From: an uncultured Enterobacteriaceae bacterium
GTDB lineage: Bacteria > Pseudomonadota > Gammaproteobacteria > Burkholderiales > SG8-39
Direction: 5' to 3'
DNA: 64,000 nucleotides
Assembly: GCA_964601155.1 (NCBI GenBank)
Contig: CAZRMO010000003.1
Location: 21,066 to 85,065 of the forward strand
Shown: in pieces, positions 13,311 through 55,200 of the stretch
How positions within the stretch are numbered: position 1 is the first letter of the stretch
Layout of the letters: every line of letters begins with the position of its first letter
Program-made: the position numbers and the translations under genes
Notes under the pieces: model-generated
Told to the model about the DNA's origin: nothing
The model's input: the letters and a program-made list of their open reading frames with translations, nothing else
Database searches by the model: none

Positions 13311-13586
13311 ATGACTATGTCAGTTCGAAACAACCTGATCCAATCCGCCGTTGCCAGCATGTTGGCGTTCGGCATTGTCGCCGCCAGCGGCAGCGCCATG
13401 GCTGCCGACAAAAACATGGAAAAATGCTTTGGCATCGCCAAGGCGGGCAAGAACGATTGCGCGAGCAACAAGAGCGCGCATGCCTGTGCGGGCCAGGCTA
13501 CCAAAAACAACGACCCCAAGGATTTCGTCGCCGTGCCCAAGGGCACTTGCGACAAGATCGCGGGCGGCAGTCTGGCTGCAATGTAA
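13311..13586 (+). CDS. bufA: DUF2282-type secreted Cys-containing peptide (bufferin/BufA1-like RiPP precursor)
   Basis: Sec-type signal peptide (...[12 protein letters not shown]|ADKN). Mature part of about 60 aa with 4 Cys (EKC, NDC, HAC, GTC). GAGGAG directly upstream. Start is ATG 13311 or 13317. Stop TAA overlaps the next ATG. Confidence 0.8.
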
Positions 13587-14428
13587 TGAGCAAGCCCGCA
13601 ACACATGCCTTGCCGTGCACCGCGAGCATAGGGTTGCGGGCGCCTCATTACCGTGAGGTCTTGGAAGCTCTGCCCAGGCTCGCTTGGGTGGAAGTGCACA
13701 GCGAAAACTTTTTTGGCGGTGGCGCGCCCCTGCATACCCTGCTCAAGGTGCGCGAACACTATTCCGTCAGTCTGCACGGCGTCGGCATGGGGCTGGCTTC
13801 GACCGCGCCGCCCGACCAGATGCATCTGTCCGCCTTACAGCGCTTGTGCGAGGCGGTGCAGCCCGCGGCGGTGTCCGAACACCTGTGCTGGAACGCTGCG
13901 CCTGGCATGGTCATCAACGATTTGTTGCCGTTCCCCTATACGCAGGAAGCCCTGACCCATGTGTCGAACCGCGTGCAACAACTGCAGGAAAAGCTCGGCC
14001 GACAATTGCTGGTGGAAAATCTCTCCAGCTATCTATCGTTCGCGCAAGCCGAAATGAGCGAGGGCGAGTTTCTTGGCGAACTGAGCCGGCGCACCGGCTG
14101 CGGCATCCTGTTCGATGTGGAAAACCTGCATGTGAACGTGCGTAACCTGGGCGTGGACGCCGCGGCTTTTATCGAGGCCCTCCCGGCCGGCGCGGTCAAG
14201 GAATATCACCTGGCCGGTTACAGCGAGAGGGACGGCTGCCTGGTGGATACGCATGATCATCCGGTCTATCCCGAGGTGTGGGAATTGTACGAGCGGGTTC
14301 TGCAGCAAATCGGTCCGCGACCCACATTGATCGAATGGGACAGCGATATACCGGCATTGCCGGTGCTCATGGGCGAGGCGGCGAAAGCGCAGCAGCGCAT
14401 GGAGGACGTCCGTGTCTGCACTGCATGA
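13586..14428 (+). CDS. bufB: DUF692/UPF0276 TIM-barrel protein, MbnB-like multinuclear non-haem iron oxidase (MNIO)
   Basis: 281 aa from MSKPATH. Matches the UPF0276 consensus along its length: IGLRAPHY...VEVHSENFF...SLHGVG..L...VSEHL.W......NDLLPFPYT.EAL...V..VQ..LGR.LLVEN.SSY...EGEFL.EL.RRTGCG.L.DV.N..V.....G....F...LP...V.E.HLAG......L.DTH...V...VW.LY........GP.PTLIEWD.DIP. Confidence 0.9.
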   Translation: MSKPATHALPCTASIGLRAPHYREVLEALPRLAWVEVHSENFFGGGAPLHTLLKVREHYSVSLHGVGMGLASTAPPDQMHLSALQRLCEAVQPAAVSEHLCWNAAPGMVINDLLPFPYTQEALTHVSNRVQQLQEKLGRQLLVENLSSYLSFAQAEMSEGEFLGELSRRTGCGILFDVENLHVNVRNLGVDAAAFIEALPAGAVKEYHLAGYSERDGCLVDTHDHPVYPEVWELYERVLQQIGPRPTLIEWDSDIPALPVLMGEAAKAQQRMEDVRVCTA

Positions 14429-15176
14429 GGTCCTGTCCGAGTTCGCGCGGGTCATCGTGCGCGGCGAGGAGCCGTCGTCGCAGATGGTCGCGCGCTATCG
14501 CAACTATTCGTCCGAGGTCGCGATCGGAATCTATCAGAACAACTATCGCGGCAATCTGCACGACGCGCTTGCGGGCGCGTATCCGGTGGTCGAGCAACTC
14601 GTGGGCAAGGATTTCTTCAGGCTGATCACGCGGCAATACATCGGGGCGCATCTTTCGCACAGCGGCAACCTGCATCGCTACGGAGCGGAAATGGCCGAGT
14701 TTCTTGCGGCCTTTGAACCCGCACGCGGCCTGGTCTACCTGCCGGATGTTGCGGCGCTGGAGTGGGCCTGCCATCGCGCCTATTTCGCGGACGATGCCGC
14801 CGCGCTGGATCTCGGCAAGCTGGCGCAAATACCCGCCGAACAGTATTCCGACTTGCGCTTGCATACCCATCCGGCCTGCCGCCTCGTGCGCTCCGCGTAT
14901 CCGATCGCAGCGATCTGGCACGCTCACCAACCCGGCGCGGACAGCGACTTCCACATCGACCTCGATGCCGGCGCCTGCAACGCACTGGTCAGCCGCAAGG
15001 ACGATGTCGTGCTGGTCGGCGAATTGTCGGATGCCGAAGCGGCCTGGCTGGAAAGCATACAAAGGGGAGTGTCACTGGGCACTGCGACCGACGGCGCCCT
15101 GGAACTCCACTCGGACTTCGACCTGCAATCGACGCTGCTCAAACTGCTGCAACTGGACGTCTTGATCGACGCCTGA
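14412..15176 (+). CDS. bufC: DUF2063 protein (MbnC-like partner/RiPP recognition subunit of DUF692 enzymes)
   Basis: 254 aa. Signature IYQNNYRGNLHDALAGAYPVVEQLVGKDFF..ITRQYI. GTG start overlaps the DUF692 gene end by 17 nt. Confidence 0.85.
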   Translation: MSALHEVLSEFARVIVRGEEPSSQMVARYRNYSSEVAIGIYQNNYRGNLHDALAGAYPVVEQLVGKDFFRLITRQYIGAHLSHSGNLHRYGAEMAEFLAAFEPARGLVYLPDVAALEWACHRAYFADDAAALDLGKLAQIPAEQYSDLRLHTHPACRLVRSAYPIAAIWHAHQPGADSDFHIDLDAGACNALVSRKDDVVLVGELSDAEAAWLESIQRGVSLGTATDGALELHSDFDLQSTLLKLLQLDVLIDA

Positions 15177-15198
15177 AATCGATATTGGGAGGAATGGC

Positions 15199-15669
15199 AT
15201 GGGCATCTTCGCGCGCATTGGACGTTTTTATTACACCGCCTCGCATTGGCCGGAATACCTTGCGCCGCTGATGGACCTGGGCCTGCGCTTATATTTGGCA
15301 AACGTGTTTTTCAAATCCGGTCTGACCAAGGTGCAGAGCTGGAGCAGCACCCTGTATCTTTTCAGCGATGTATATCATGTGCCGCTGTTGTCGCCCGAAG
15401 TCGCAGCCACGATGGCCGCAAGCGCGGAATTAGGCCTCTCGGCCCTGCTGGTGATCGGACTGCTGGGCCGGTTTTCGGCTGCGGGACTTTTCATTCTTAA
15501 CGCGGTGGCGGTCATTTCCTATCCCGACCTAAGCCAAGGTGGCCTCAATCAGCACCTATCCTGGGGCATACTGCTCGGCGTGCTGCTGATTGCCAGCCGC
15601 GGCCAATGGTCCGTGGATGCGTGGCTGGAGAAGCGCCTGAAGGGCTTCACCGCCAGACTCCAGCGCTGA
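15199..15669 (+). CDS. DoxX family integral membrane protein
   Basis: 156 aa, four hydrophobic helices. LRLYLANVFFKSGLTK and AELGLSALLVIGLLGRFSA are typical of DoxX. Starts 22 nt after the DUF2063 gene. Confidence 0.8.
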   Translation: MGIFARIGRFYYTASHWPEYLAPLMDLGLRLYLANVFFKSGLTKVQSWSSTLYLFSDVYHVPLLSPEVAATMAASAELGLSALLVIGLLGRFSAAGLFILNAVAVISYPDLSQGGLNQHLSWGILLGVLLIASRGQWSVDAWLEKRLKGFTARLQR

Positions 15670-29274: not shown

Positions 29275-29390
29275 CGCATAGCAGAGGGAGCGCATGGCAG
29301 AGGGGCCGTGGAAATCTCTCTAGCGCCGCGGTCAACGCATCCATGCGGTCCTGCGCGAGTACCAAAACAAGCCGCGGAGGCGGCGCAGAA

Positions 29391-29771
29391 CTACTGCTTC
29401 ATTTCACGCTTGAGGATGTCCGCCGCGGCAGCGGCGGACATGCCGCGGCAGCGCGCGTTCCACAGGTAATCGAACATCGAATGGCTCAGCGCGCCCTCTA
29501 TCTGCGGCGGGCTGGGCGTTTGCGTCGCGTCTGCAAGAAAGCGCTTGCCGTTTGCGCTTCCACAAATAATCGGACCCAGCTTGCTCGGAATCAGCCTGAG
29601 CCCCTCGAAGCTGACATCGGCGGCGGGCCGCCCCAGCGCCTTCGCAACGTCTACGCGCGCCTGTTGCAGCAGAGGCCCCTCGTTTTCATGCTGGGCGTCA
29701 GACAGCGACGGACCCAGCGCCAAGGCCAGGATGAGCATGCGGTAAAACCAACGGCATACGGCTTGCTTCAT
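29391..29771 (-). CDS. Hypothetical secreted protein
   Basis: 127 aa from MKQAVCRWFYRMLILALALGPSLSDA (signal-peptide-like). Same strand as, and downstream of, the cytochrome pair. No family recognised. Confidence 0.5.
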   Translation of the reverse strand: MKQAVCRWFYRMLILALALGPSLSDAQHENEGPLLQQARVDVAKALGRPAADVSFEGLRLIPSKLGPIICGSANGKRFLADATQTPSPPQIEGALSHSMFDYLWNARCRGMSAAAAADILKREMKQ

Positions 29772-29865: not shown

Positions 29866-30510
29866 CTACTTCGCAGTCATACTCCGCAGATAAGCGGCGA
29901 CCGCTTCCATGTTTTTGTGGTCGAGCGAGTGGGTGATCGTCTTCATTACGACGCCGTCCGGTCTTTCGTTGGTCCGCTGGAACACGTTGAGTTGCTTGAC
30001 CACGTAGTCCGAATGTTGATACGCGATGCGGGGAAACAGGCCGTTGCCCTGGCCGTGATCTCCGTGGCAGGATGCGCAGGGCGGAACACCCTTTGCCGGC
30101 AACCCATCGTGGAATATCTGCTTGCCCATGGCCGCCAGCTTCGGATTTCCCGGCGCGAGGGGAACTGATTTTTGCGAGGAGAAGTACTCCGCCAAGCCCT
30201 TGATCTGGGCATCGGTCAGGCTGCGGCTGATGCCCCACATGTATTCGAATCCGGGGGGATCGTCGCGGTGATGGCTGCGGAACATCGTAAGCTGCCCGAC
30301 TATGTACTCCTGCTGCTGCTGGGCGAGCTTGGGAAAAGTGGGATTGATGGAATTGCCGTCGACGTTGTGGCAGTTCGAGCAGACCTGCTCGGCCAGGGTC
30401 TTGGCAGGAACATTGGGGTTGCCCAGGTCGCGCGAGCGCACCAGCGTCGTCGTGCAGCCGGTGCCGAACGCGGCAGCGGCCAGTACCACTGTAATTGTTG
30501 CGATTTTCAT
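29866..30510 (-). CDS. Dihaem cytochrome c4-type lipoprotein (Cyc1-like)
   Basis: Lipobox FGTGC. Two CxxCH motifs (CSNCH, CASCH), each in a class I cytochrome c half-domain. GGAGAC upstream of ATG 30510. Confidence 0.85.
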   Translation of the reverse strand: MKIATITVVLAAAAFGTGCTTTLVRSRDLGNPNVPAKTLAEQVCSNCHNVDGNSINPTFPKLAQQQQEYIVGQLTMFRSHHRDDPPGFEYMWGISRSLTDAQIKGLAEYFSSQKSVPLAPGNPKLAAMGKQIFHDGLPAKGVPPCASCHGDHGQGNGLFPRIAYQHSDYVVKQLNVFQRTNERPDGVVMKTITHSLDHKNMEAVAAYLRSMTAK

Positions 30511-30593
30511 TTTACGGTCTCCGAATATTTTCATCATGTATGTCGGGGGTGCGCCGCCTTTGCGGCGCACCTCGGGTCATTGAAACCAGCTGT

Positions 30594-31874
30594 TCAATAT
30601 GCGCCCCAGATATAGAAGAACACAGTGTTGTTGTCGCTTGCGCCCACGCTAGTGTCATTGAACCTGCTGAACTTGGTGTATTGCAGGCCTACCCGCACGT
30701 ACTGCTTCGGGAGCCAGAATACTTCCGGCGTCCAGCCGCTTGAGTTGTACCGGGCATCCACTGCGCTAAAACCCGACGCGTTATTGTCAGTATTGTCGTA
30801 ATTGAAGTAGGAAAGCGTGGCGCCGTATTTCGCCTGATAGGTAAAGGAGGTCTTGGCCCTCAGGGAATTGACCGTGTCGCTTGCGAGGCCCGGCGCGCCG
30901 GGATCGATTGTTTCGTGGATGCGCGTGACCATCGCGGTGAGCGTGTAGGGATCGAGCAGATACTGGTATTGGGCATCGAAGCCGGTGTCGCGGTAGTGGT
31001 CGGTCGGGCCGCCGGGGGTGCTCGAATCCGTATACGGACGAACATCGAAGTGCGTCATGCCGACCATGATGTTGTTCGGACCCCATTCTTTGGTGTACGC
31101 CAGACGGATGTAGGGATTGGTTCCCTTGATATATACCTGGCCGCCGTTACCGTGGGTCATGAAGGAAAACACGCCGTCGCCGGTCCGATAGCCGCTGATT
31201 TCCGCGTACAGCGTCTTGTTCCAGTAGGCATAGGCGCCGATTCCGACCGCTTGTTGTCCGAGGCCGTCTTCAAGAATGGTCGAGGTGCCGGATCCTTGTC
31301 CTGTGGAGCCGGGCACGATGCCGTAGCCCCAGGCCGGCGCGCTGTTGAACACGTCCTCCACCGTGGGATTGTTATTCAGCGTCAGGCCGTAGATCAGGTC
31401 CCGGTGGTTGTTTATCAGGTGGTCGGCGTAGCGGATGTCCATGTTGTCCGGGCCGGAACGGCCATACCAGCCGTTAGCGGGTTTAGGGCCGCCGTCGGGA
31501 TTGTAATTGTTGAAGGTGATCTGGGCGAAGCCGCCGATCCGGTCGGTGATCTTTCCGGCGATGAACAGGCTCGCGGTGTTGAAAATGAGTGATCCGTTCT
31601 CGAGCTTCCCGTTGGCCGGATCATTGGCCTTCACCTTGTTGGAGGTCACCACAGCCATCATCGCGAGCGGCAGCTCGCGCTGTCCGATGGTGTAGCCGGT
31701 CAGCTTGAACAGGCGCCCGTAGGGGGTCAGTTCCGGGAACTGGCCGCCCGCATGGCAGGCCACGCAGTTCTGGCCGGTCTGGCGCGCGAACGAGGGTACG
31801 GCTTGGGCTTGCGGCGCGAGGACCAGCAGCAATGGGATGAGGGCGCAGGCACCAGCAACCCGAGCGGCAAGCAT
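30594..31874 (-). CDS. Fused monohaem cytochrome c-outer membrane beta-barrel protein (Cyc2-like candidate)
   Basis: Signal peptide (...LAPQAQA|VPSF). Single CVACH 13 residues into the mature protein. Then about 390 aa of alternating amphipathic, Gly/Tyr/Asn-rich sequence ending in the OMP beta-signal FFYIWGAY*. Start at ATG 31874 is preferred. Confidence 0.65.
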   Translation of the reverse strand: MLAARVAGACALIPLLLVLAPQAQAVPSFARQTGQNCVACHAGGQFPELTPYGRLFKLTGYTIGQRELPLAMMAVVTSNKVKANDPANGKLENGSLIFNTASLFIAGKITDRIGGFAQITFNNYNPDGGPKPANGWYGRSGPDNMDIRYADHLINNHRDLIYGLTLNNNPTVEDVFNSAPAWGYGIVPGSTGQGSGTSTILEDGLGQQAVGIGAYAYWNKTLYAEISGYRTGDGVFSFMTHGNGGQVYIKGTNPYIRLAYTKEWGPNNIMVGMTHFDVRPYTDSSTPGGPTDHYRDTGFDAQYQYLLDPYTLTAMVTRIHETIDPGAPGLASDTVNSLRAKTSFTYQAKYGATLSYFNYDNTDNNASGFSAVDARYNSSGWTPEVFWLPKQYVRVGLQYTKFSRFNDTSVGASDNNTVFFYIWGAY

Positions 31875-32363
31875 GCGGCCAATTTTTTTCGCCAGCGTCG
31901 GCACGATCACGACCGTGCCGGCGGTGTTTTTAATTCCCTGCGATCCCCGGGGGCTCCGTGATCCGCGCAAATCGATACCCATAATGTCATCCCTCCACTT
32001 CGTTGATGTAAACCGTTAATTTAGCTACAAACATTGACTACAAACCGTATGTCCGCTGCCAACCCGATATGCGATCGCGCGCATTCGTCGGTGCCCAGAA
32101 TTTCTTCAGTAAAAGCCGTGAGTCCTGGCACTTGAGGCCATTTCCCTCGGACACCCGAGATTGCCTAGAGCCGGCTAGGCCGACTCGCGCAGCAGCATCT
32201 AAATTCCGGATGAGAGTTGACGTGCAGCCGTGGACAAACAGAGTCGAGAAGCTTGTGCTTTTGGAAATCATGCAGGTCCACTAAACATGGGCCGCACTTT
32301 AACGAAGTTGGACGGATCGAAATAGTAGACAATATAGAATTATTAGTTCCTGGAATTGCAACA

Positions 32364-33245
32364 ATGGATCGATTGGATGCAATGCGGCTTTTCGTCCGGG
32401 TTGCCGAGCTCGGCAGCTTTTCGGCGGTCGCAAAACAGATGGATGTCGCGCGCTCGGCGGTTACGCGTCAAGTAGCTGCTCTGGAGAACCACCTCGGTGC
32501 CAGATTGATGGCTCGCAGCACGAGGCGACTCACTCTCACCTCAGCGGGTATCGCCTATCTGGAGAATTGTCGCGCAATACTTAATCTTGTCGAGGCCGCC
32601 GAATCGGATGTCAGCGAGGACAGGCAGACGCCGCGGGGGGTCGTTCGGATCAGCGTGCCGCTCAGCTATGGCCTCAGGCGGCTCGCCTCGCTGCTGCTGG
32701 ACTTTTCGCACCAATACCCCGAAGTCGGCCTGGAGATGGACTTCTCGGATCGGCACATAAACCTGATTGAAGAAGGCGTTGACCTTACGATCCGCATCAC
32801 GCCGCGACCGGAGATGCGAGACGTAAATCGACGCATAGCGACGGAGCGCATGGTTGTAGTCGCCTCTCCAGCGTATCTGGCCCGCCACGGTACACCTGGC
32901 CATCCGGCGGATCTGATTCGCCACGTTTGCCTTGGCTACACCGGCGCAAACAGCCGTACCTGGCAGTTCCGTATTGCGGGCAAGGTCGAGAGATTCCCGG
33001 TACGCAGCCATGTTTTCGCCAATAATGGCGACGTACTCGTCGAAGCGGCTGCGCGTTCCCTTGGGATCGCATGCCAGCCGGAATTCATCACCGCGGCGTA
33101 TGTCGGGGACGGACGACTAAAAGAGATCTTGGGCGATTTTCAAGTGCCGAAACTGGGCGTGTTTGCGGTCCTGCCGGGCAATCGCCAAGTGCCCCACCGG
33201 GTCAGGGTACTGATGGAGTGGCTGGCACAAAAAATTGCGATTTAA
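32364..33245 (+). CDS. LysR-family transcriptional regulator
   Basis: N-terminal HTH MDRLDAMRLFVRVAELGSFSAVAKQMDVARSAVTRQVAALENHLGARL and a LysR substrate-binding C-terminus. Divergent from the Cyc2-like gene. Confidence 0.9.
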   Translation: MDRLDAMRLFVRVAELGSFSAVAKQMDVARSAVTRQVAALENHLGARLMARSTRRLTLTSAGIAYLENCRAILNLVEAAESDVSEDRQTPRGVVRISVPLSYGLRRLASLLLDFSHQYPEVGLEMDFSDRHINLIEEGVDLTIRITPRPEMRDVNRRIATERMVVVASPAYLARHGTPGHPADLIRHVCLGYTGANSRTWQFRIAGKVERFPVRSHVFANNGDVLVEAAARSLGIACQPEFITAAYVGDGRLKEILGDFQVPKLGVFAVLPGNRQVPHRVRVLMEWLAQKIAI

Positions 33246-33325: not shown

Positions 33326-33535
33326 TCAGTCCTCCAACGTAAAGCCCACCTTGATGGTGACCTGCCAGTGGGCGACTTTCCCGTTCTCCACCTGACCGCG
33401 TGTCTCGATAACTTCGAACCAGTGAATATTGCGCACCGACGTGGAAGCCTTGGCGATGGCGGTACTGACGGCATCCTCCATGTTCTTGGTTGAGGATCCG
33501 GTGAGTTCGATACTCTTGTAGACGTGATTGCTCAT
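33326..33535 (-). CDS. Dodecin-family flavin-binding protein
   Basis: 69 aa. [12 protein letters not shown]....EDAV..AI.KA......I.WFEV.ETRG.VENGKV.HWQVT.KVGFTLE is near-consensus dodecin. Confidence 0.9.
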
Positions 33536-42499: not shown

Positions 42500-43498
42500 A
42501 TGAGCATCCACAAGACCGCGGCGACGCCGGGCAGCGAGCGCGAGCATGCGCTCTCGCTGCTGCGGCAGATGCTGCTCATACGCCGCTTCGAGGAGAAAGC
42601 AGCCGAACTCTACAGCGCGGGAAAAATCCGCGGCTTCCTGCATCTGTATATAGGCGAAGAGGCGATCGCGGTGGGCGCGATGCAGGCGCTAGGCGCGGAG
42701 GATGCGGTGGTCGCGACCTACCGCGAGCACGGCCACGCGCTCGCGCGCGGCCTGCCCGCCGGAGCGATCATGGCGGAAATGTATGGCAAGGCGAACGGCT
42801 GCAGCCGCGGCCGCGGCGGCTCGATGCACCTGTTCGATGTCGGGCGCCGCTTCTATGGCGGCTATGCCATCGTCGCCGGCGGTCTGCCGGTTGCGGTGGG
42901 CCTCGCGCTCGCCGACAAGATGCAGGAGCGGCAGGCGGTGACGGCGTGTTTTTTCGGCGAAGGCGCGGCCGCGGAGGGCGAATTCCACGAATCGCTCAAT
43001 CTGGCGGCGCTGTGGCGGCTGCCGGTCCTGTTCCTTTGCGAAAACAATCTCTACGCGATGGGCACCGCGCTGGAGCGCTCGGAATCGCAAACGGATATCC
43101 ACCTGAAGGCGCAGAGCTACAACATCGTCGCCGAGGCGGTCGACGGCATGGATGTGCTGGCGGTGGAGTCAGCGGTGCAACGCGCGGTCGCGCAGCTGCG
43201 CCGCGGCGAAGGCCCTTACTTTCTCGAACTGCGCACTTATCGCTATCGCGCGCACTCCATGTCCGATCCGGAACTCTACCGCAGCAAGGAAGAGGTCGCG
43301 CAGTGGCGCGGCCGCGATCCGATATCGCTGTTCGATGCCTACCTCAGGGGAAACGGCATGCTCGACGACGCCGAACTGAAGACGCTCGAAACCGACGTCG
43401 CCAAGGATGTCGATTGGGCCGTGGCCGAAGCGGAGAAGGGCGCGTGGGAGCCGGTCTCCGATCTGGAGCGCGACGTTTATGCCAGCGCCGGCGCCTAG
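42500..43498 (+). CDS. Thiamine-diphosphate-dependent 2-oxoacid/acetoin dehydrogenase E1 alpha subunit
   Basis: 332 aa. TPP motif [37 protein letters not shown] and [11 protein letters not shown] phospho-loop region. Confidence 0.9.
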
Positions 43499-43527: not shown

Positions 43528-44496
43528 ATGGCCAAGATGACCTACCGAGTAGCAGTGCGCGAAGCGATGCGCGAAGCACTGCGTGCGGACCCGCGCGTGT
43601 TTCTCATGGGCGAAGACGTGGGCAAGTACGGCGGCTGTTTCGCGGTGAGCCATGGGCTGCTGGACGAGTTCGGGCCGAAGCGCGTACGCGACACGCCGCT
43701 GTCCGAGTCGACTTTCGTCGGCGCCGGCATCGGCGCAGCGCTGGGCGGCATGCGACCGATCGTCGAGATCATGACCATCAATTTCAGCCTGCTCGCGCTC
43801 GACCAGATCGTCAACAATGCCGCCATCTTGCGCTATATGTCGGGCGGCCAGCTAGGCGTCCCATTGGTGGTGCGCATGGCAACGGGCGGCGGCCGGCAGC
43901 TCGCCGCGCAGCACTCGCACAGCCTCGAAGGCTGGTATGCGCACATCCCGGGGATCAAGGCCGCGGCGCCGGCGACCGTGGCCGATGCCAAGGGTCTGCT
44001 GCTCGCCGCGCTGAAGGAGCCCGACCCGGTAATGCTGTTCGAACATGCGACCTTGTATCCGCTGGAAGGCGAGAGCGAGGACGACACGCCGATGGAGTTT
44101 GGTCGCGCGGCGCTGCGGCGCGCTGGCCGCGACGTGAGCCTGATCACTTATGGCGGCGCACTGGGCAAGACGCTGCAGGCCGCGGCGCAGCTGGCCGAGC
44201 AGGGTGTGGATGCCGAGGTCATCGACCTGCGCAGTCTGCGCCCGCTGGATACCGAGACCATCTTTGCCTCGCTGGCCCATACCCACAGGGCGGTGATCGT
44301 GGAGGAGGCGTGGAAAGCTTGCGGCTTCGGGGCCGAGGTCAGTGCGCGCATCATGGAAGGCGCGTTCGACGCACTCGACGCACCGGTCGTCCGCGTGTGC
44401 GGGGCGGAAGTGCCCATGCCCTACGCGCAAGCCCTGGAGCAGGCCGCTTTGCCGCAGCCGGAGACCATAGTCAAAGCGGTGCGGGAGTTGCTTTAG
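43528..44496 (+). CDS. 2-oxoacid/acetoin dehydrogenase E1 beta subunit
   Basis: 322 aa from [28 protein letters not shown]....GL..EFG..RV.DTPLSE is the E1-beta consensus. Confidence 0.9.
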
Positions 44497-44498
44497 TC

Positions 44499-45800
44499 AT
44501 GGCGGAGTTCCTTATGCCGCGCTTGGGTGCCGACATGACCGCCGGCAAAGTGGTGGCCTGGCTCAAACAGCCGGGGGAACGCATCAAACGCGGTGACGTC
44601 ATCGCCGTCGTCGAAACCGACAAAGCCAACGTCGATGTGGAGTCCTTCGTCGACGGAGTGATGGAAAAGATTCTGGTTCAGCCCGGTGACGAGCGGCTCC
44701 CGGTCGGCACGCCGCTTGCGCTGATTGGGGGCGAGGCCGGCGCGGAAGCTGCGGCACCTGCACCGGCTCCCGCTCCCGCGGCGCCTGCGCCGGCCACCGC
44801 GGCGCCTGCGCCGGCCACCGTGGCGCCTGCGCCGGCCACCGCAGCGCCGCGCGCGGTCGTCACACCGGGGGCTGCCGCGCCGGCGCCTGTTCCATCCGTA
44901 GTGGCCGCGCCGGAGAAGGCTCCGAGCCCGGCAGCGCCGGCAGCATCGCGACCCGCTGGCGCGGGCGAGCGCGCACGCATCTCGCCGGCAGCACGCAAGC
45001 GCGCACAGGAATTGCGGCTGGATCCGGCAACGCTGGCAGGCACGGGTCCGCAGGGACGCGTGACGCTCGCCGACGTCGAGCGCGCCGCGCAGGGCGTCAA
45101 GAAGGAAGCCGGCGCGGGCGATACCGCGGCGGCGCGCCAAATTCGCATGCGCGAAGCCATCGCCACGGCTATGGCACGTTCCAAGCGCGAAATCCCCCAC
45201 TATTATCTCGCCAGCACCATCGACTTTGGGCGCGCGCTGGGGTGGCTCGCCGAGCGCAATGCGGGCCGTGCCGTGACCGAGCGCCTGATCTATGCCGTGC
45301 TGCTGATCAAGGCGTCGGCACTGGCCTTGCGCGAGGTGCCGGAACTGAACGGGTTTTGGATCGACAACCATGCCGAGCAAAGCGATGCGATCCATGCCGG
45401 CATCGCAATTTCCCTGCGCGGCGGCGGGCTGGTGGCGCCGGCGCTGCACCACGCGGATCGGCAGTCGCTGGACGAACTGATGCACGGATTCCAGGACCTC
45501 GTCAAGCGCGCGCGCGCAGGTTCGCTCAAGAGTTCGGAGGTCACCGATCCCACCGTGACCATCACCAGCCTGGGCGAACGCGGGGTGGAGTCGCTGTTCG
45601 GCATCATCACGCCGCCGCAGCTCGCGCTGGTCGGCTTCGGCACGCCGCTGGAGCGGCCCTGGGTGGTGGACGGCAAGGTGATGGCGCGCCCGCTGCTGAG
45701 CGCGACGCTTTCCGGGGATCACCGCGCCACCGACGGCCACCGCGGCGCACTTTTTCTGACAGCGCTGGATCGCTTGCTGCAACAACCGGAGGCTTTATGA
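44499..45800 (+). CDS. Dihydrolipoamide acyltransferase (E2): lipoyl domain, subunit-binding domain, catalytic domain
   Basis: Lipoyl-Lys ETDKA, Ala/Pro linker, [19 protein letters not shown], catalytic DHRATDG. Starts 2 nt after the E1-beta stop. Confidence 0.9.
44781..44843 (+). repeat. 3 x 21-bp tandem repeat inside the E2 linker
   Basis: GCGCCTGCGCCGGCCACCG(C/T)G repeated three times, encoding APAPATA x3. An ordinary flexible linker feature. Confidence 0.85.
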
Positions 45801-46178: not shown

Positions 46179-47822
46179 TTGAATTCCCCACCTTTCATCC
46201 AGACCCAAGTCCTGATCATCGGCGGCGGCGCCACGGGCACGGCGCTGGCGCGAGACCTCGCCTTGCGCGGCGTCGACTGCATCCTTGTCGAAAAGAACGA
46301 CATCAACGCCGGCGCCTCGGGGCGCAATCATGGCCTGCTCCACAGCGGCGCCCGCTACGTCGCGGGCGACCCCCAGGTGGCGATCGAGTGCCGCGCCGAG
46401 GGCGCCATTCTCAAACGCATGGCGGCGCAGACGATCCAGGATACCGGCGGCTATTTCGTCGCGGTGCAGGGCGACGACGAACGTTATATCGCCGACTTCC
46501 CTTCGCTTTGCGCGCGCGCGGGAATCGCTGCGCGCGCAGTGGACCCCGCCGCGGCGCGCGCGCTGGAACCGGCGCTCTCGGAACGCACGATTGCGGTGTT
46601 CGAGGTGCCCGACGCATCGATCGACCCGTTCCGGCTCTCCCTGGAAACCATGGCTCATGCGCGCAGCCTGGGCGCGCGGCTGATGCGGCGCACCCAGGTC
46701 GTAGGCTTCGAGCGCGAGGGCCGGCGCATCCGCGCAGTGCGGCTTCGGTCACTGACTGGCGGCGAGGACCTGCGTATCGAGGCCGAGCAGGTCATCAATG
46801 CAGCGGGCGCCTGGGCGCCCGAAGTGGCCTTGCTCGCCGGAGCGCCGATCGAGATGACGTACTCCAAGGGAACGCTGCTGGTCACGCACACACGTCTGGC
46901 CGAGCGCGCGGTGACCCGCCTGCGGCCGCCGGCCGACGCCGACATCCTGATGCCGGCCGGCACGGTCTCCATCGTCGGCACGACGTCGACCCCCGTTAAT
47001 ACCTTGGACGACATCCAGCCGACGACGGCCGAAGCCGACCTGATCGTGGCAGAGGCCGCGCGCATGCTGCCGGCCTTGGCGACGATGCGCTACATCCGCG
47101 CTTTCGCGGGCGTGCGACCGCTCGTAGGTTCGGCGGGTCTTGCCGACGGCCGTGCCATTTCGCGCGGCTACGCCCTGTTCGACCACGAGGATCAGGGTCT
47201 GGACAATTTTGCGACGATCACCGGGGGCAAGCTCAGCACCTGCCGGCTAATGGCCGAACGCGCCGCGGACCTGCTGTGCCGGCGCCTCGGCGTGACGCGC
47301 CCCTGCGTCACGGCCACGATGCCCTTGCCTGTGGCTCCGGAATGCGAGTGGACCGAACCGGGACGTTCCCCGCGCGCGTGGATGCGTAGCCACGCGCGGG
47401 ACGATACGCTGCTGTGCGAGTGCGAGTTGGTTCCGGGCCGCGCCGTCGACGCCATCTACGACGCGCTGCGCGCGGCAGGCGACACGCCGACGCTGACGGA
47501 CATCGGCTTGCGCAGCCGCGTCGGCAAGGGCGCTTGCCAGGGGGCCTTCTGCGCGCCACGCACCGTGGCCCATCTCTACAACCGCGGCGACTTCCAGGCG
47601 CGTCGCGGCCTCGCCGAGATTGTCGATTTCTTCGATGAGCGCTGGCGCGGCCAGCGCGCGGTCCTGTGGGGCGAGCAACTCGCCCAGGCCGAGTTGATGG
47701 AAGCGCTGCATTGCGGCACTTTCGGGGAGGAACTGCGCGGAGAAGAGTTGCGCGATGCCCGCATGGACGACGCACCGCGCGCCGCGCCGAACGCGGACCC
47801 GGCGGGTAAGGCGTCGCGGTGA
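46179..47822 (+). CDS. glpA: Anaerobic glycerol-3-phosphate dehydrogenase subunit A
   Basis: 547 aa. FAD fold VLIIGGGATGTALARDLALRG, GASGRNHGLLHSGARY, C-terminal BFD-like [2Fe-2S] region CECE...C.GAFC. TTG start. Confidence 0.88.
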   Translation: MNSPPFIQTQVLIIGGGATGTALARDLALRGVDCILVEKNDINAGASGRNHGLLHSGARYVAGDPQVAIECRAEGAILKRMAAQTIQDTGGYFVAVQGDDERYIADFPSLCARAGIAARAVDPAAARALEPALSERTIAVFEVPDASIDPFRLSLETMAHARSLGARLMRRTQVVGFEREGRRIRAVRLRSLTGGEDLRIEAEQVINAAGAWAPEVALLAGAPIEMTYSKGTLLVTHTRLAERAVTRLRPPADADILMPAGTVSIVGTTSTPVNTLDDIQPTTAEADLIVAEAARMLPALATMRYIRAFAGVRPLVGSAGLADGRAISRGYALFDHEDQGLDNFATITGGKLSTCRLMAERAADLLCRRLGVTRPCVTATMPLPVAPECEWTEPGRSPRAWMRSHARDDTLLCECELVPGRAVDAIYDALRAAGDTPTLTDIGLRSRVGKGACQGAFCAPRTVAHLYNRGDFQARRGLAEIVDFFDERWRGQRAVLWGEQLAQAELMEALHCGTFGEELRGEELRDARMDDAPRAAPNADPAGKASR

Positions 47823-49123
47823 CGGGCGCAAGGCAGGAAAGCTGCGACCTTGCCGTGATCGGCGCCGGAATGGCAGGCATGGCGGCGGCCCTGTTCGCCG
47901 CGGAGCGTGGACTTTCGTGCATCCAAATCGGCAACAGCGGCGGCCTGCTGTTCGCGAGTGGCTTGCTCGACCTTCTGGGCGTACACCCGGTGGCCGAGGG
48001 GCGCCTGTGGCAATCGCCTTACGCAGGCCTCGAGGCGCTCGCCCGGGACGAGCCCGACCATCCTCTGGCGCGTGTCGACGCCGCCTCGATCCGCAACGCG
48101 CTCGAGACCTTCGTCGCGGCGCTCGGCAGTGCCGGGCTTGCATATGCGCCTCTGGCCGACCGGAATCGCAAGTTGCTCACGTCTATCGGGACGGTCAAGA
48201 CCACATTCGGCGTGCCGCGATCGATGGTCGCGGGCGACTATGCGCTGGAGGCACGGCCACCTTGCCTGTTGGCGGACTTCCGCGGACTGCGCGAGTTCAG
48301 CGCAGCGCAGATCGCAGCGACGCTGGGCGATCGCTGGCCCGGTCTGCGCCATCAGCAGATCGAGTTCCCCGGTCATGAAGCCGTGCCCGAACTCTATGCT
48401 GCGCACCTCGCGCGCGCCCTCGAAAGCGGAGAGACGTGCGGGCGGACAATCGCCCTGGTGAAGCCGCTGCTCGGCGACGCGCGCGTGGTCGGATTCCCGG
48501 CGGTCCTTGGCCTCGCGCGCGCGGGCGCGGTCCACGCCGCGTTCGAGGCTGCGCTCCGAATACCGGTGTTCGAGATTCCGACCATGCCGACGTCGGTGCC
48601 CGGGCTGCGCCTGCAGGGCGCGCTGGAAACGGCTGTGTCGGTCCGCGGCGTGCATCGGCGCCAGCAGGCAAGGGTGCGCGCTTTGTCTTTCGAAGCGGAC
48701 GGGGGCAGGGCCGTGCTCGAACTCGACGGTATTCCGGGCGGCGAGCGCGTGCTCGCCCGTGCGGTGGTGCTGGCCACGGGGCGATTCAGCGGCCGCGGCC
48801 TCACCGCCGATCGCGGCTGCGTCCGCGAGAGCATCCTCGGCCTGCCCGTGGCTCAGCCCAACTCGCGCGAGGCCTGGCACCAGCGCGACTTCCTCGACCC
48901 GGCGGGCCACGCGATAAACCGCGCCGGCCTGTCCATCGACGAGGTTTGGCGGCCCCTGGGCGCGAACGGAAAGCCGGTGTGGCCGCGGCTCTACGCCGTC
49001 GGCTCCATCCTCGCGCACCAGGATTGGATGCGCTCGAAGTGCGGCTCGGGCTTGTCCATCGCCACGGCCTGGGCGGCGGTGGACCAAGTGGCGCGCCAGC
49101 TCCGCGGCAATGGGACAGGGTAG
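47819..49123 (+). CDS. glpB: Anaerobic glycerol-3-phosphate dehydrogenase subunit B
   Basis: 434 aa. DLAVIGAGMAGMAAALFAAERG dinucleotide fold. GTGA overlap with the glpA stop. Confidence 0.8.
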   Translation: MTGARQESCDLAVIGAGMAGMAAALFAAERGLSCIQIGNSGGLLFASGLLDLLGVHPVAEGRLWQSPYAGLEALARDEPDHPLARVDAASIRNALETFVAALGSAGLAYAPLADRNRKLLTSIGTVKTTFGVPRSMVAGDYALEARPPCLLADFRGLREFSAAQIAATLGDRWPGLRHQQIEFPGHEAVPELYAAHLARALESGETCGRTIALVKPLLGDARVVGFPAVLGLARAGAVHAAFEAALRIPVFEIPTMPTSVPGLRLQGALETAVSVRGVHRRQQARVRALSFEADGGRAVLELDGIPGGERVLARAVVLATGRFSGRGLTADRGCVRESILGLPVAQPNSREAWHQRDFLDPAGHAINRAGLSIDEVWRPLGANGKPVWPRLYAVGSILAHQDWMRSKCGSGLSIATAWAAVDQVARQLRGNGTG

Positions 49124-49319
49124 CTAGTGTCCCGAGTCGCTAATTCGCTGAAGAAAAGACGCCGAGAATCGACGCCATACGGCGTTGCAAATGCTCGCAA
49201 GGTGTCCAACCTTGCTGCGCTTTGCGCCTTGTCTGGCGCCGATTTCGCCGCTTTTCCGCTTCAACCATTGTTTCGTCCTCAGGCAATTGTTCAACGAACT
49301 AGCGACTCGGGACACTAGC
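49123..49319. mobile_element. MITE-like non-autonomous element or long terminal-inverted-repeat structure
   Basis: Perfect 20-bp terminal inverted repeats: GCTAGTGTCCCGAGTCGCTA (49123-49142) and TAGCGACTCGGGACACTAGC (49300-49319). Imperfect pairing continues about 11 bp inward. No coding capacity. Fills the whole glpB-to-next-gene spacer. Confidence 0.6.
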
Positions 49320-49320
49320 C

Positions 49321-51045
49321 ATGTCGCCTGTGCTTTTCCAGACCGCCCTTTACATCTCGCTCGCGCTGTGCGGCCTGGGCCTCATCTGGCGCGCCTCGGC
49401 CTGGTTCAGGGTCCGGATCGGTACCGATGCGCGCGCTGTCACGTGGTCCGCGCGCATGGCTGCGCTGTTTCGCGGCACCACCTGGGTTTTGTTCAGCCGG
49501 CGCCTGTTCGCCGTGCTCGGCGCCTTCTTTCTCGATGTGCTGCTGCTGCGCAGGCTGTACACGCACGAGAAGCTGCGCTGGTTCGCACACCTGCTCATCG
49601 TGGTCGGCTTTATGCTGCTCCTGCTGCTGCACGCCCTCGCGCCGATCGTGAGCGCGAAGCTGTTTCCGGGCTACCAGCCCACGCTCGATCCCTACCTGTT
49701 TCTGCGCGATCTCTTCGGAGTGATGGTTCTGGCTGGCGCCGCTCTGCTGTTGCTCGGACGCCGGCCTGCCCGCAGGGACCTGGCGCAAACGCGCGATCGG
49801 TTCGGCGCGGCCTTCATGGCGCTCCTCGCGTTTGTTCTCGTCTCGGGATTCCTGCTCGAAGCCTGCAAGATCGCATCGCCGCACGCCTTCTACCGCATGA
49901 CGGACCAGTTCATGGGCACCACCGATCCCCAGAAACTCGCGCCGCTGCGCGCCCTCTGGGGGAGCGAGTTCGGGGTGGCGTTCGCCGACATGAAGCAGCC
50001 GATCGACCCGCTCCTGCTGGAGCAGGGGCGCAAACTGAACAGCGAATCCTGTGCGTCCTGTCACGCGAAGCCGGCGTCCGCTTTCGTCTCCTACCCGCTG
50101 GCACGGATGCTGGCGCCCGTGACCCGCCTTCTGGACGAAGGACATGCGGATGTCTGGCTACTCTATCTTCATGTGTTCGCCTGCTTCCTCGGCCTGGCGA
50201 GCCTGCCGTTCACCCGCTTCTTCCACGTGGTGGCAGCTCCGCTCAGCCTGCTCGTCGACGCCGCGTCGCAGGATCCGGCGTTCTCGACCCATACGTTTTC
50301 GACCGCGGGTCGCGCTATGCGGCGGGCGCTGGCGCTCGACGCCTGCGTGCGCTGCGGCATCTGCGATCTGCGCTGCTCGGTGGCCCCGCTGGCGCGCTAC
50401 CTGGGCAACCCGGGTCTGCTGCCCTCGCACAAGCTGCTCGCCACCGGCGCCCTGGCCGGCGGCCGGCTGCTGCGTGCTGGCCACGAAGACGAGGCGCTGC
50501 GGGCCGCCGACGGGGCCTTCCTCTGCACCGACTGCGGACGCTGCACCAGCCGCTGCCCGGTGGGTATCGATCTGGCGGACCTGTGGCAGGCCGGACGCGG
50601 CGATTTGGCCGCAGCAGGACTTCCGACGCCCGCACAGTGGGTGCAGGCAAATCCGGCGCTTGAATGGGCCGAGTTTCTGCAGGCAGATTCCGGACTGCAT
50701 ACGCTTGACGATCCGGATGCCTCCAGTGCACCGCTCTCGTCCGAGCGCAGCACGTTCTCCCGCTGCGTTCAGTGCCAGACCTGCACTAACGTTTGCCCGG
50801 TGGTGGCGCACAGCATCGACGCCGAGCACGGTATCGACCTTACGCCGCAGAAGGTGATGAACCTGCTGCGGCTTGGCCTGCGCGACCTTACGCTGGGTTC
50901 GCGCATGGTATGGGACTGCGCGACCTGCTACCAGTGCCAGGAGAGCTGCCCGGAAGGCATACGCGTGGCCGACATCATGTGCGAGCTGCGCGGCTTGGCG
51001 GTACAGCGGTTGGGCTCCGTTCGGAACTGGAAGGAGCACGCATGA
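49321..51045 (+). CDS. Membrane-anchored iron-sulfur protein: NarI/DsrM-like polytopic N-domain fused to a four-[4Fe-4S]-motif domain
   Basis: N-terminal region of about 330 aa with at least 5 hydrophobic helices carrying His (HLLIVVG, LLHAL, LHVFACF, FFHVV). C-terminal CVRCGICDLRC, CTDCGRCTSRCP, CVQCQTCTNVCP, CATCYQCQESCP. Confidence 0.75.
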   Translation: MSPVLFQTALYISLALCGLGLIWRASAWFRVRIGTDARAVTWSARMAALFRGTTWVLFSRRLFAVLGAFFLDVLLLRRLYTHEKLRWFAHLLIVVGFMLLLLLHALAPIVSAKLFPGYQPTLDPYLFLRDLFGVMVLAGAALLLLGRRPARRDLAQTRDRFGAAFMALLAFVLVSGFLLEACKIASPHAFYRMTDQFMGTTDPQKLAPLRALWGSEFGVAFADMKQPIDPLLLEQGRKLNSESCASCHAKPASAFVSYPLARMLAPVTRLLDEGHADVWLLYLHVFACFLGLASLPFTRFFHVVAAPLSLLVDAASQDPAFSTHTFSTAGRAMRRALALDACVRCGICDLRCSVAPLARYLGNPGLLPSHKLLATGALAGGRLLRAGHEDEALRAADGAFLCTDCGRCTSRCPVGIDLADLWQAGRGDLAAAGLPTPAQWVQANPALEWAEFLQADSGLHTLDDPDASSAPLSSERSTFSRCVQCQTCTNVCPVVAHSIDAEHGIDLTPQKVMNLLRLGLRDLTLGSRMVWDCATCYQCQESCPEGIRVADIMCELRGLAVQRLGSVRNWKEHA

Positions 51046-51848
51046 AATACGCGCTGTTCCTCGGCTGCAAGATCCCTGCACAGCTGCCGGCCTACGAGAC
51101 GTCCATGCGCGCCGTGCTCGGGCACCTCGGTGTCACCCTGATCGATCTGGAGTTCAACTGCTGCGGCTATCCGGCGCGGAATTACAGCCATGACGCCTTC
51201 GTGGTGGCAGCCGCCCATAACCTGGCCCTGGCGGAGCGCGCCGGCCTCGACCTGCTGACGCCCTGCAGTTGTTGCTTCGGCACCCTGCGGCACGCGATCC
51301 GGTTCCTGAACGAGGACGCGCAGCTGCGCGCGCGCGTTGCCCAGGCGCTGGCCGCCGAGGGCCTCGCCTGGTCGGGAAAGACCCAGGTCGAGCACTTGCT
51401 GCCGCTGTTGGCGCGTACGATCGGCGTTGACGCTCTTGCGGCCGCGGTGCGCATCCCGCACGCGGGGCTGCGTGTGGCCGCCCAATACGGCTGCCACGCG
51501 CTGCGCCCCAGCGACGTGAGCGGAATCGACAACGCGATGGCGCCGACGCTGTTCGAAACGCTGATCAGCTTGACCGGTGCGACCCCGGTCGACTGGCCAC
51601 GCCGGCTGGACTGCTGCGGTGATCCGCTGCACGAAGCGAACACCGCATTGTCCGAGCGTATGACGCAAGCGAAGATCGCCGATGCGCTCGAGTCCGGTGC
51701 CGAAGCCATCTGCTCGGCCTGCCCTCACTGCCAGCTGCGCTTCGACGCAGTCCAGGCGGAGAGCACTGACCCTTCGATTCGCACGCTGCTCTACACGCAG
51801 CTTCTCGGTCTGGCGATGGGCCTGCCCGCGAAATCCCTCGGGCTGTAG
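51042..51848 (+). CDS. CCG-domain protein (heterodisulfide reductase subunit B / GlpC C-terminal half-like)
   Basis: 268 aa. Two Cys-rich CCG motifs (FNCCGYP, LDCCGDP) plus CSCCFG and CPHCQ. ATGA overlap with the previous gene. Confidence 0.8.
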   Translation: MKYALFLGCKIPAQLPAYETSMRAVLGHLGVTLIDLEFNCCGYPARNYSHDAFVVAAAHNLALAERAGLDLLTPCSCCFGTLRHAIRFLNEDAQLRARVAQALAAEGLAWSGKTQVEHLLPLLARTIGVDALAAAVRIPHAGLRVAAQYGCHALRPSDVSGIDNAMAPTLFETLISLTGATPVDWPRRLDCCGDPLHEANTALSERMTQAKIADALESGAEAICSACPHCQLRFDAVQAESTDPSIRTLLYTQLLGLAMGLPAKSLGL

Positions 51849-52061
51849 CTTTCGGGAACGGCGCGTCATCGGCGCCGGACGGTCGCAGTAGGTGGGGTGT
51901 GCGAAATGCGGCGGTATTGAAATTCCCGTCTTTTCTTGATTTCCCTCAAGGGGCTCCTTTCGGGGTAGGTTAAAAAGACGATGTTGACCGAGTGGATGCT
52001 TCCGGCGGCCGGCGAGTATTCCCGCGCTCAGGGGCGGGCCAATGAATTAAGGGGGAACGCA

Positions 52062-53381: not shown

Positions 53382-53444
53382 AGATCCGTCTCGCGGGGAG
53401 GGGGCGTGCCTCCGTCCCCGCGAGGATGGCTCAAGCTGGCGTCT

Positions 53445-54350
53445 ATGGCAACCGTCGTTGAGGAGGAGCGCTTCCCGGGGCACCGTTTGCTTCCGTTCAT
53501 GCTGATCCTGCCGTCGCTCGCAGTGATCGGCGTCTTCCTGGTCGTACCGTTCCTGCAGAGCGTGCAGGGATCCTTTTACCAGACCACGGCCTTCGGTACG
53601 CACAGCGTATATGTCGGGCTGCGCAATTACTCCCGTCTGTTCGAGTCGTCCGAGTTCCGCAATAGCGCGTTTGCCACGCTGCTATTCGCCGCTTTCGTGA
53701 TGGTGATCGGGCTGAGCTTTTCGCTGGGTATCGCACACCTCCTGAACCAGAAGATCCGGGGTCGGGGCATGTATCAGATCGCGCTCATCTGGACCTATGC
53801 GCTCTCGCCCGCGGTGGCGGGGGCGATCTGGGCCCTGATGTTCGCGCCGTCGACCGGGATCGTGCCGTTTGTCGTCGCCAAGCTGTTCCATGGCTATTTC
53901 ATCAACTGGATGACCAACGGCTCGCTCGCGCTGTTCGTCGTATCAGCCGCCGCGACGTGGAAGATGCTCGGCTACAACATCGTGTTCTTTCTCGCCGGAT
54001 TGCAGAATATTCCCGAAGAGTTCATCGATGCTGCGCGGGTGGACGGCGCCAGCCCGTGGCGGACGTTCTGGGACATCACCTTCCCGATGCTGTCGCCGAC
54101 GACGACGTTCCTGCTGTTCGTTAACATGATCTACGCGTTCTTCCAGGTGTTCGGCCTGATCGACATCATGACGCACGGAGGGCCGGGGAACGCGACCAAC
54201 ATCCTCATCTACAAGCTGTACCGGGATGCGTTCCTCTACCTCGACTCCGGCACGGCCTCAGCCGAGTCGTGCATCGTTTTCGTCGTCATCGCGACGGCGT
54301 CGGTCATCCAGCTGCACTTCGCGACGCGCAAGGCGATCTATGCGCGCTAG
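53445..54350 (+). CDS. ugpA: sn-Glycerol-3-phosphate ABC transporter permease
   Basis: 6-TM MalF/UgpA-type permease with the EAA loop FIDAARVDGASPWRTFWDITFPML. Start ATG 53445 is preferred to 53406. Confidence 0.8.
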   Translation: MATVVEEERFPGHRLLPFMLILPSLAVIGVFLVVPFLQSVQGSFYQTTAFGTHSVYVGLRNYSRLFESSEFRNSAFATLLFAAFVMVIGLSFSLGIAHLLNQKIRGRGMYQIALIWTYALSPAVAGAIWALMFAPSTGIVPFVVAKLFHGYFINWMTNGSLALFVVSAAATWKMLGYNIVFFLAGLQNIPEEFIDAARVDGASPWRTFWDITFPMLSPTTTFLLFVNMIYAFFQVFGLIDIMTHGGPGNATNILIYKLYRDAFLYLDSGTASAESCIVFVVIATASVIQLHFATRKAIYAR

Positions 54351-54362
54351 GGAGCAATCGAA

Positions 54363-55190: not shown

Positions 55191-55200
55191 CGGGCGCGGT

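Follow-up and report, generated by a model that had tools for sequence, protein, structure and literature searches.

The DNA analysed here, referred to as the window, is a 64,000-nucleotide (nt) stretch of a contig from an uncultured betaproteobacterium, and it contains a gene pair that encodes a Cyc2-like cytochrome-porin and a dihaem cytochrome c4. An earlier inspection of the letters without database searches (the sequence-only reading) had proposed this pair as a candidate module for extracellular Fe(II) oxidation. The genes flagged at the locus all lie on the minus strand, except for a divergent lysR gene. The cyc2-like gene (30594–31982), which was assigned from its open reading frame (ORF) and BLASTP matches, encodes a precursor of 462 amino acids (aa), in which a monohaem cytochrome c is predicted to be fused to a 16-strand outer-membrane porin. 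A lipoprotein gene with two CxxCH motifs follows 83 nt downstream on the same strand, where the sequence-only reading had placed it. This cyc1-like gene (29866–30510), which was identified by Pfam and PDB matches, encodes a predicted 214-aa dihaem cytochrome c4 lipoprotein whose ORF starts at 30510 and carries the lipobox FGTGC (Cys19 at 30454–30456) and the haem motifs CSNCH (30367–30381) and CASCH (30064–30078). The small secreted hypothetical protein noted after the c4 gene was confirmed as a 126-aa ORF with a signal peptide (29391–29771), which has no match in Pfam or NCBIfam and is directly followed by a terminator-like GC hairpin with a T-rich tail (29371–29384, minus strand). On the other side of the cyc2-like gene, a divergent regulatory region of lower GC content (31983–32363) leads to the plus-strand gene of a 293-aa LysR-family regulator with HTH_1 and LysR_substrate domains (32364–33245). 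The locus encodes a genuine but ordinary Cyc2-type cytochrome-porin with its usual c4 partner, arranged as a stand-alone pair.

To place the locus among its relatives, a species-level genome scan was performed with the cyc2-like protein, which matched 479 species genomes; the counts out of 80 given below are from the best 80 of these 479. The comparison loci are coded L001–L088, among which L002, L006 and L007 are syntenic contigs and L086–L088 are from Acidithiobacillus.

Start codon and leader of the Cyc2-like protein

The sequence-only reading had assigned a product of 427 aa that begins at ATG 31874. The short form is 426 aa, and comparison of the upstream sequences points almost with certainty to ATG 31982 as the true start, which leaves ATG 31874 as a less likely alternative. 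In the spacer alignment, the GGAGG sequence, ATG 31982 and the N-terminal residues MGIDLRGSRS do not vary among the window, L002, L006 and L007, and ATG 31874 is not conserved in L002, L006 and L007. ATG 31982 was chosen because the GGAGG Shine-Dalgarno sequence (31992–31996, minus strand) is located 8 nt upstream and because this ATG and the first codons, in contrast to ATG 31874, are conserved. The precursor therefore comprises 462 aa with a leader of 61 aa (31800–31982, minus strand), which, as read from the sequence, consists of an N-terminal extension, a hydrophobic core and a predicted cleavage site between AQA and VP. The mature chain is 401 aa whichever start is used.

The conserved N-terminal extension is 36 residues long (MGIDLRGSRSPRGS...; 31875–31982, minus strand), precedes an otherwise normal signal peptide and is common to L002, L006 and L007. 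The leaders are short in Sulfuriferula and the more distant homologues, compared with 61 aa in the closest relatives of the window.

The window protein carries the Cyc2 signature

Cyc2 is defined by a signal peptide, one CXXCH motif, a length of at least 365 aa and a 16-strand porin (Keffer et al., 2021; PMC8406198). The motif AXPXFAR[Q/K][T/Y], which is located upstream of the haem site, is stated to be unique to Cyc2, and a PXL motif is located downstream (PMC8406198). The window protein reads AVPSFARQT-GQN-CVACH-AGGQF-PEL: AVPSFARQT (31776–31802, minus strand) matches the upstream signature, CVACH (31752–31766, minus strand) is the haem c attachment site, and PEL represents the PXL motif, which starts 5 rather than 4 residues after the haem His. 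The signal peptide is recognizable in the sequence by the hydrophobic core and the AQA-VP junction, although its 61-aa leader is unusually long, and both the precursor (462 aa) and the mature chain (401 aa) exceed the length of 365 aa. CVACH, which begins at residue 73 of 462, is the sole CxxCH motif in the protein and lies 11 residues past the predicted cleavage site, in agreement with the single motif near the mature N-terminus that had been noted from the sequence. The C-terminal sequence FFYIWGAY is likewise present as it had been described.

These features are shared by the homologues. In alignment A1, C37, C40, H41 and about 65 other positions are invariant across 54 aligned homologues, and CVACH is not a chance occurrence, because its two Cys and the His are among the invariant residues. 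The AVPSFARQT signature is found in 69 of the 88 related loci, and the remainder are truncated or one substitution away. Across the related loci, the chain ends in an aromatic residue, with WGAY in 43 of the 88. More than 5500 homologues of the cyc2-like protein were found, the named ones being annotated as 'cytochrome C' of Sulfuriferula species (58–68% identity); the exact protein has no entry in the assembly index. Neither Pfam nor NCBIfam contains a match for the cytochrome-porin, and sequence and profile searches against the PDB returned weak cytochrome c6 matches to the haem motif alone and detected no solved Cyc2.

The scan of species genomes with the window protein returned close betaproteobacterial relatives only and no Acidithiobacillus. 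A reference Cyc2 was reached through its partner: the sequence of 1H1O (Cyc1) was used as a query, which led to the Cyc1 of Acidithiobacillus ferrivorans SS3 and to the surrounding locus (L086). This locus contains a 485-aa gene, cyc1, a 183-aa gene (cup), COX2, COX1, small genes, a cupredoxin gene and UbiA; it was identified by gene context as the rus operon, and its Cyc2 was identified accordingly. The rus-operon Cyc2 (485 aa, L086:7532–8989) aligns with the window protein by BLASTP from the leader to the last residue with 29% identity and an E-value (E) of 8e-31, well beyond the threshold of 1e-5 or better that the criteria of Keffer et al. set for a match with an established Cyc2. The cytochrome domain is the best-conserved part, with 26 of 45 residues identical to Acidithiobacillus Cyc2, and the porin is identical at 31% of the aligned positions. 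With the AXPXFAR[Q/K][T/Y] signature and this end-to-end alignment, the Cyc2 identity put forward by the sequence-only reading is upheld, and there is very little doubt that the window protein is a member of the Cyc2 family.

The published identities allow a finer placement. Within the group of A. ferrooxidans, Ferrovum, Thiomonas, Dechloromonas and Burkholderiales GJ-E10, the identity is 26.7–35.2%, compared with approximately 15–23% between Cyc2 clusters (Fig. S7D, PMC8406198); the A. ferrooxidans group is named cluster 2 elsewhere, and the Sulfuriferula Cyc2 has also been placed in cluster 2 (PMC12285272). The global identity of the mature chains of the window protein and the rus-operon Cyc2 is 29.1%, which falls within the 26.7–35.2% range and therefore fits the A. 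ferrooxidans group. Based on this value and on its cluster-2 homologues in Sulfuriferula, the window Cyc2 probably belongs to cluster 2.

The predicted fold is a 16-strand porin

The AlphaFold2 model, which was built from the 54-sequence alignment, has a mean predicted local distance difference test score (pLDDT) of 75 and a predicted template modelling score (pTM) of 0.76, and the barrel blocks mostly reach pLDDT values of 80–92. DSSP assigns 16 strands to the model between residues 70 and 425, and the porin domain (30600–31667, minus strand), as delineated with AlphaFold2, DSSP and Foldseek, ends in WGAY. All top PDB hits from Foldseek belong to the 16-strand general porins (OmpF, OmpC, OmpU and chitoporin; E of about 1e-9), with a template modelling score (TM-score), normalised to the target, of 0.55–0.63. 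The 16-strand barrel that the sequence-only reading had expected of a structure prediction was thus obtained, and a predicted N-terminal monohaem cytochrome c domain of approximately 45 residues fused to a 16-strand outer-membrane porin is directly supported.

The structural matches to general porins would also be expected of an ordinary diffusion porin with an incidental or vestigial CxxCH motif and an unrelated c4 neighbour, and no curated family model matches the protein. However, none of the 54 homologues deviates in the haem motif or in the Cyc2 signature next to it, the haem region is better conserved against Acidithiobacillus Cyc2 than any other part of the chain, and a c4 gene adjoins cyc2 in 78 of the 80 genomes. 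A plain porin is therefore extremely improbable, and we continue with a Cyc2-type cytochrome-porin.

The partner is a cytochrome c4 with a conserved lipobox

The protein encoded downstream of cyc2 begins with the N-terminal sequence MKIATITVVLAAAAFGTGC and is matched twice by Pfam Cytochrom_C (PF00034; E 4.5e-18). Its best PDB match is 1H1O, the A. ferrooxidans CYC41/Cyc1 (E 3.4e-32), which agrees with the c4 type that had been assigned to the lipoprotein from its two haem motifs; 1ETP, the Pseudomonas stutzeri cytochrome c4, follows with E 4.7e-30. Both alignments extend over the full length of the protein, and both haem sites and both Met-containing segments, which hold the candidate axial Met residues, are aligned. 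These comparisons directly support the assignment of the partner as a cytochrome c4 with two class I haem domains and as a predicted lipoprotein. It shares 40% identity with the rus-operon Cyc1. Because the match to 1H1O is just marginally better than that to 1ETP, its orthology to Cyc1 is argued mainly from the position of its gene next to cyc2.

Of the 86 partner N-termini from the L001–L085 set, 78 have a lipobox Cys with an (E)RSRxL segment after it; the Acidithiobacillus Cyc1 (L086–L088) and three Paraburkholderia copies encoded upstream of cyc2 lack this element. At position +2 after the lipid Cys, Asp occurs in none of the lipoboxes shown. Under the sorting rule of Escherichia coli, a lipoprotein without Asp at +2 is predicted to be placed in the outer membrane, and the c4 is therefore predicted to reside on the outer membrane. 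This prediction suggests that the c4 may be anchored on the inner side of the outer membrane, beside Cyc2.

A c4 lipoprotein in this position could deliver electrons as readily as accept them, and a haem-in-porin conduit would in principle be reversible. The pair might accordingly be thought to run in the reverse direction and to export periplasmic respiratory electrons to an acceptor outside the cell, for instance Fe(III) chelates or humics. This direction is nevertheless very unlikely: the characterised Cyc2 proteins are oxidases, with a potential of +208 mV for Cyc2 of Mariprofundus PV-1, c4 cytochromes normally feed terminal oxidases, and no reductase-type multihaem partners are encoded nearby. 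Inward transfer, from Cyc2 to c4, remains the direction considered below.

Operon structure and regulation

The GC content of the spacer is 0.49–0.52, compared with 0.63 for the whole window, and lysR starts at 32364, 489 base pairs from ATG 31874, which matches the divergent LysR gene and low-GC spacer of the sequence-only reading. In L002, L003, L006 and L007, lysR occupies the same position and its product shares 74–84% identity with that of the window; the Sulfuriferula and Paraburkholderia loci have no lysR gene in this position, and the gene is common to the nearest relatives alone. Next to the lysR start, the block TTGTC..CTATTTCGA (minus strand, approximately 32317–32332) is invariant in the window, L002, L006 and L007, and the rest of the divergent spacer diverges among these four sequences. 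The block is a candidate regulator-binding site (LysR box). No sigma-70-like promoter site was detected in the divergent spacer, and no minus-strand terminator-like site was found between cyc2, the c4 gene and the small ORF. These three genes probably form one transcript, and the divergent LysR regulator probably governs its expression.

Gene order and distribution of the pair

The c4 gene is located directly downstream of cyc2 in 75 of the 78 genome loci in which the two adjoin, and upstream in 3; the contigs of the remaining 2 of the 80 loci end right after cyc2. The carriers among the best 80 loci include Sulfuriferula, Rugosibacter, Usitatibacter, Sterolibacterium-like metagenome-assembled genomes, Paraburkholderia and Burkholderia, as well as Undibacterium, Herminiimonas, Glaciimonas, Janthinobacterium, Rugamonas and Solimicrobium; a Paraburkholderia strain carries the module with 47–50% identity. 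The closest contigs (L002 and L003, 86% identity) share the order dodecin, LysR, cyc2, c4 and small ORF with the window. The small ORF downstream of the pair is kept solely in the nearest relatives L002, L003, L006 and L015, with 53–78% identity. The dodecin gene of the window (33326–33535, minus strand; E 3.2e-29) is located beside lysR and has the same position in L002 and L003.

Several loci are arranged differently. In Paraburkholderia mimosarum, P. denitrificans and Paraburkholderia sp. A1BS-2L (L070, L071 and L072), the c4 gene is upstream of cyc2 and encodes an ordinary signal peptide without a lipobox, and these loci look like another version of the module with a layout of its own; the copy of strain A1BS-2L is carried by the 383-kilobase (kb) plasmid pTA2.1. 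In Sulfuriferula plumbiphila and related contigs (L001, L004/L005; 2682–12048), the pair directly follows the Calvin-cycle and glycolytic genes tkt-gap-pgk-pyk-fba. Sulfuriferula sp. GW1 contains two copies of the pair (L010 and L011).

The module itself is already known, since the two-gene form has been reported in Sulfuriferula and homologues of both proteins in Burkholderiales and Nitrosomonadales. A published network analysis linked the Cyc2 and Cyc1 of A. ferrooxidans to Burkholderiales and Nitrosomonadales homologues, and the same analysis described stand-alone cyc2 and cyc1 genes in Acidithiobacillus.

Gene content of the window

The scan of the window ORFs detected no COX1, COX2 or cupredoxin domain, and no oxidase, rusticyanin, RuBisCO or carbon-fixation genes. 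The observation that no rusticyanin or cox/cbb3 genes adjoin the pair thus holds for all scanned ORFs of the window, and the locus is therefore a stand-alone cyc2-cyc1 pair rather than a rus operon. An Acidithiobacillus-type rus operon was rejected on the same grounds, as no aa3 oxidase, cup or rusticyanin genes accompany cyc2 and c4. A CxxCH scan found no multihaem ORF in the window; a conduit of the MtoAB/PioAB/MtrAB type was rejected, given this result and the single haem fused to a 16-strand barrel.

Fumarase homologues of the host reach 93% identity in metagenome contigs only, and the named matches (83–84%) are labelled 'Betaproteobacteria bacterium'. Elsewhere, the window encodes, among others, a resistance-nodulation-division (RND) efflux system with a two-component pair, flavin adenine dinucleotide (FAD) oxidases, acyl-coenzyme A (acyl-CoA) enzymes, a 2-oxoacid dehydrogenase, GlpABC-like proteins, an ATP-binding cassette (ABC) transporter and a sugar kinase. 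The glycerol-3-phosphate-type cluster at 46179–56667 comprises GlpA/GlpB-like flavoproteins, an Fe-S subunit with an incidental CxxCH motif, the ABC transporter (a binding protein and two permeases) and an FGGY kinase. On the plus strand at 13317–15669, a secreted four-Cys peptide (DUF2282, E 7.9e-26; 13317–13586) is followed by MbnB/TglH/ChrH (DUF692), DUF2063 and DoxX genes. This order resembles the copper-binding 'bufferin' systems of ribosomally synthesised and post-translationally modified peptides (RiPPs), and the locus is a candidate bufferin-type peptide operon. Between the E1 (42500–43498) and E2 (44310–45800) genes of the 2-oxoacid dehydrogenase, two short minus-strand ORFs were picked by the GC content at third codon positions (GC3) at 43542–44147, where a plus-strand E1-beta gene is more likely. 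ARAGORN calls a 95-nt tRNA-Glu at 56883–56977 (plus strand) inside a methionine sulfoxide reductase ORF, where Rfam finds no tRNA, and this call is probably spurious. The tRNA-Ser(GGA) at 7350–7441 is backed by both ARAGORN and Rfam.

Proposed function of the module

In analogy with the characterised Cyc2 proteins, the physiological role of the pair is moderately likely to be Fe(II) oxidation or electron uptake. Dissolved Fe2+ would meet the haem through or at the pore and would become oxidised there, the electron would be handed to the c4 partner on the periplasmic side, and the c4 would in turn pass it to a terminal oxidase or a bc1 complex encoded elsewhere in the genome; the LysR regulator would control the expression of the module. 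Iron oxidase activity has been shown in vitro for one Cyc2 from each cluster, and Sulfuriferula isolates that oxidise Fe(II) have been reported with cyc2 (cluster 2) and cyc1 (PMC12285272). The Sulfuriferula cyc2-like genes in our scan share 59–71% identity with the window protein.

Several points weigh against this role. The link between cyc2 and Fe(II) oxidation in Sulfuriferula is correlative, and function in much of clusters 2 and 3 is unverified according to Keffer et al. (PMC8406198). Many carriers, including Paraburkholderia, Burkholderia, Undibacterium and Janthinobacterium, are not known iron oxidisers, and the 64-kb neighbourhood of the pair looks heterotroph-like, without lithotrophy genes. 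In the structural model, the N-terminal haem domain has a pLDDT below 50, a low confidence that extends to its placement relative to the pore; such a low value is as expected for a haem domain modelled without its cofactor.

Part of this evidence would fit a non-energetic role of the same proteins in a heterotroph, in which surface oxidation of Fe2+ would be protective and limit Fe2+ entry and Fenton chemistry, or in which the proteins, switched on by LysR, would oxidise a different soluble reductant (reduced humics, Cu(I) or Mn(II), for example). The window has a heterotrophic gene content in which lithoautotrophy genes are missing, the module is common among heterotrophic members of the Burkholderiaceae and Oxalobacteraceae, having a transcription factor of its own points to use under particular conditions, and Keffer et al. 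consider additional functions of Cyc2 to be possible (PMC8406198). However, no Cyc2 is known to act on a substrate other than iron, the argument from heterotrophy is drawn from 64 kb of genome only, and the Sulfuriferula pair directly follows Calvin-cycle and glycolytic genes in a genus whose isolates grow on Fe(II) (PMC12285272). We regard a non-energetic role as possible but unlikely, and favour Fe(II) oxidation or electron uptake.

A further proposal extends from the window to the wider group of carriers. The c4 would be tethered by the conserved Cys-x3-5-RSR-x-L segment rather than act as a free shuttle, and would form with Cyc2 a fixed outer-membrane unit of two proteins and three haems, unlike the arrangement in Acidithiobacillus. 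If such a unit occurs across hundreds of Burkholderiales that live as heterotrophs (among them Paraburkholderia, Burkholderia and Undibacterium), oxidation of Fe(II) at the surface, or a different LysR-controlled extracellular redox process, would be common and unrecognised in soil heterotrophs. We put this forward as a tentative proposal that is rather doubtful at present.

Cyc2 is the main genetic marker for inferring microbial iron oxidation from genomes, and its function is unverified outside a few lithotrophs. The locus adds one uncultured betaproteobacterial carrier of cyc2 with a heterotroph-like neighbourhood. The near-invariant pairing of cyc2 with c4 and the partner lipobox that is absent from Acidithiobacillus Cyc1 may be more useful than the locus itself, and the culturable Paraburkholderia and Burkholderia strains that carry the module offer tractable hosts for the question of whether the cluster-2 Cyc2 of non-lithotrophs oxidises iron. 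The features worth noting are the conserved lipoprotein character of the partner within the clade, the long leader that is conserved among the closest relatives and the occurrence of the module in Burkholderiaceae that can be cultured.

Comparison with known systems

The window protein resembles the Cyc2 of A. ferrooxidans and A. ferrivorans in its leader, the xLPSFARQTG-x2-CxxCH segment, the PxL motif, the 16-strand porin and the C-terminal W-x-A-Y, although its mature chain is shorter (401 versus 454 aa) and its leader is long (61 aa). As in the Acidithiobacillus rus operon, cyc2 is immediately followed by a dihaem c4 gene; in contrast to that operon, cup, coxBACD and rusticyanin genes are missing downstream in the window. 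In contrast to Acidithiobacillus, the host of the window is probably no acidophile. The c4 shares with 1H1O and 1ETP the two-domain architecture of class I dihaem cytochromes, in which both CxxCH motifs and the Met segments can be aligned, whereas the Acidithiobacillus Cyc1 has a non-lipoprotein signal or anchor and the window c4 is a predicted lipoprotein with the conserved C-x3-5-RSR-x-L linker.

The nearest named relatives are Sulfuriferula species (Sulfuricellaceae), whose Cyc2 and c4 are 55–71% and 54–64% identical to those of the window, respectively. The gap between cyc2 and c4 is about equal (84–88 nt in several loci, 83 nt here), and the c4 lipobox is the same. In contrast to S. plumbiphila and the related contigs, in which the pair is located after tkt-gap-pgk-pyk-fba, the pair of the window is flanked by LysR and dodecin genes.

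With the Cyc2 of Mariprofundus ferrooxydans PV-1, the window protein has in common a signal peptide, a single CXXCH motif, the AXPXFAR[Q/K][T/Y] signature and a predicted 16-strand porin (PMC8406198). The PV-1 protein belongs to cluster 1 and is a biochemically shown iron oxidase, and cluster 1 shares approximately 18–23% identity with the A. ferrooxidans group (PMC8406198). Judged by the published identities, the two proteins would belong to different phylogenetic clusters. MtoAB, PioAB and MtrCAB likewise employ a β-barrel and c-type haem to carry electrons across the outer membrane; whereas these systems place a separate decahaem cytochrome in a larger barrel of 26–28 strands, the window protein is predicted to fuse a single haem to a 16-strand porin.

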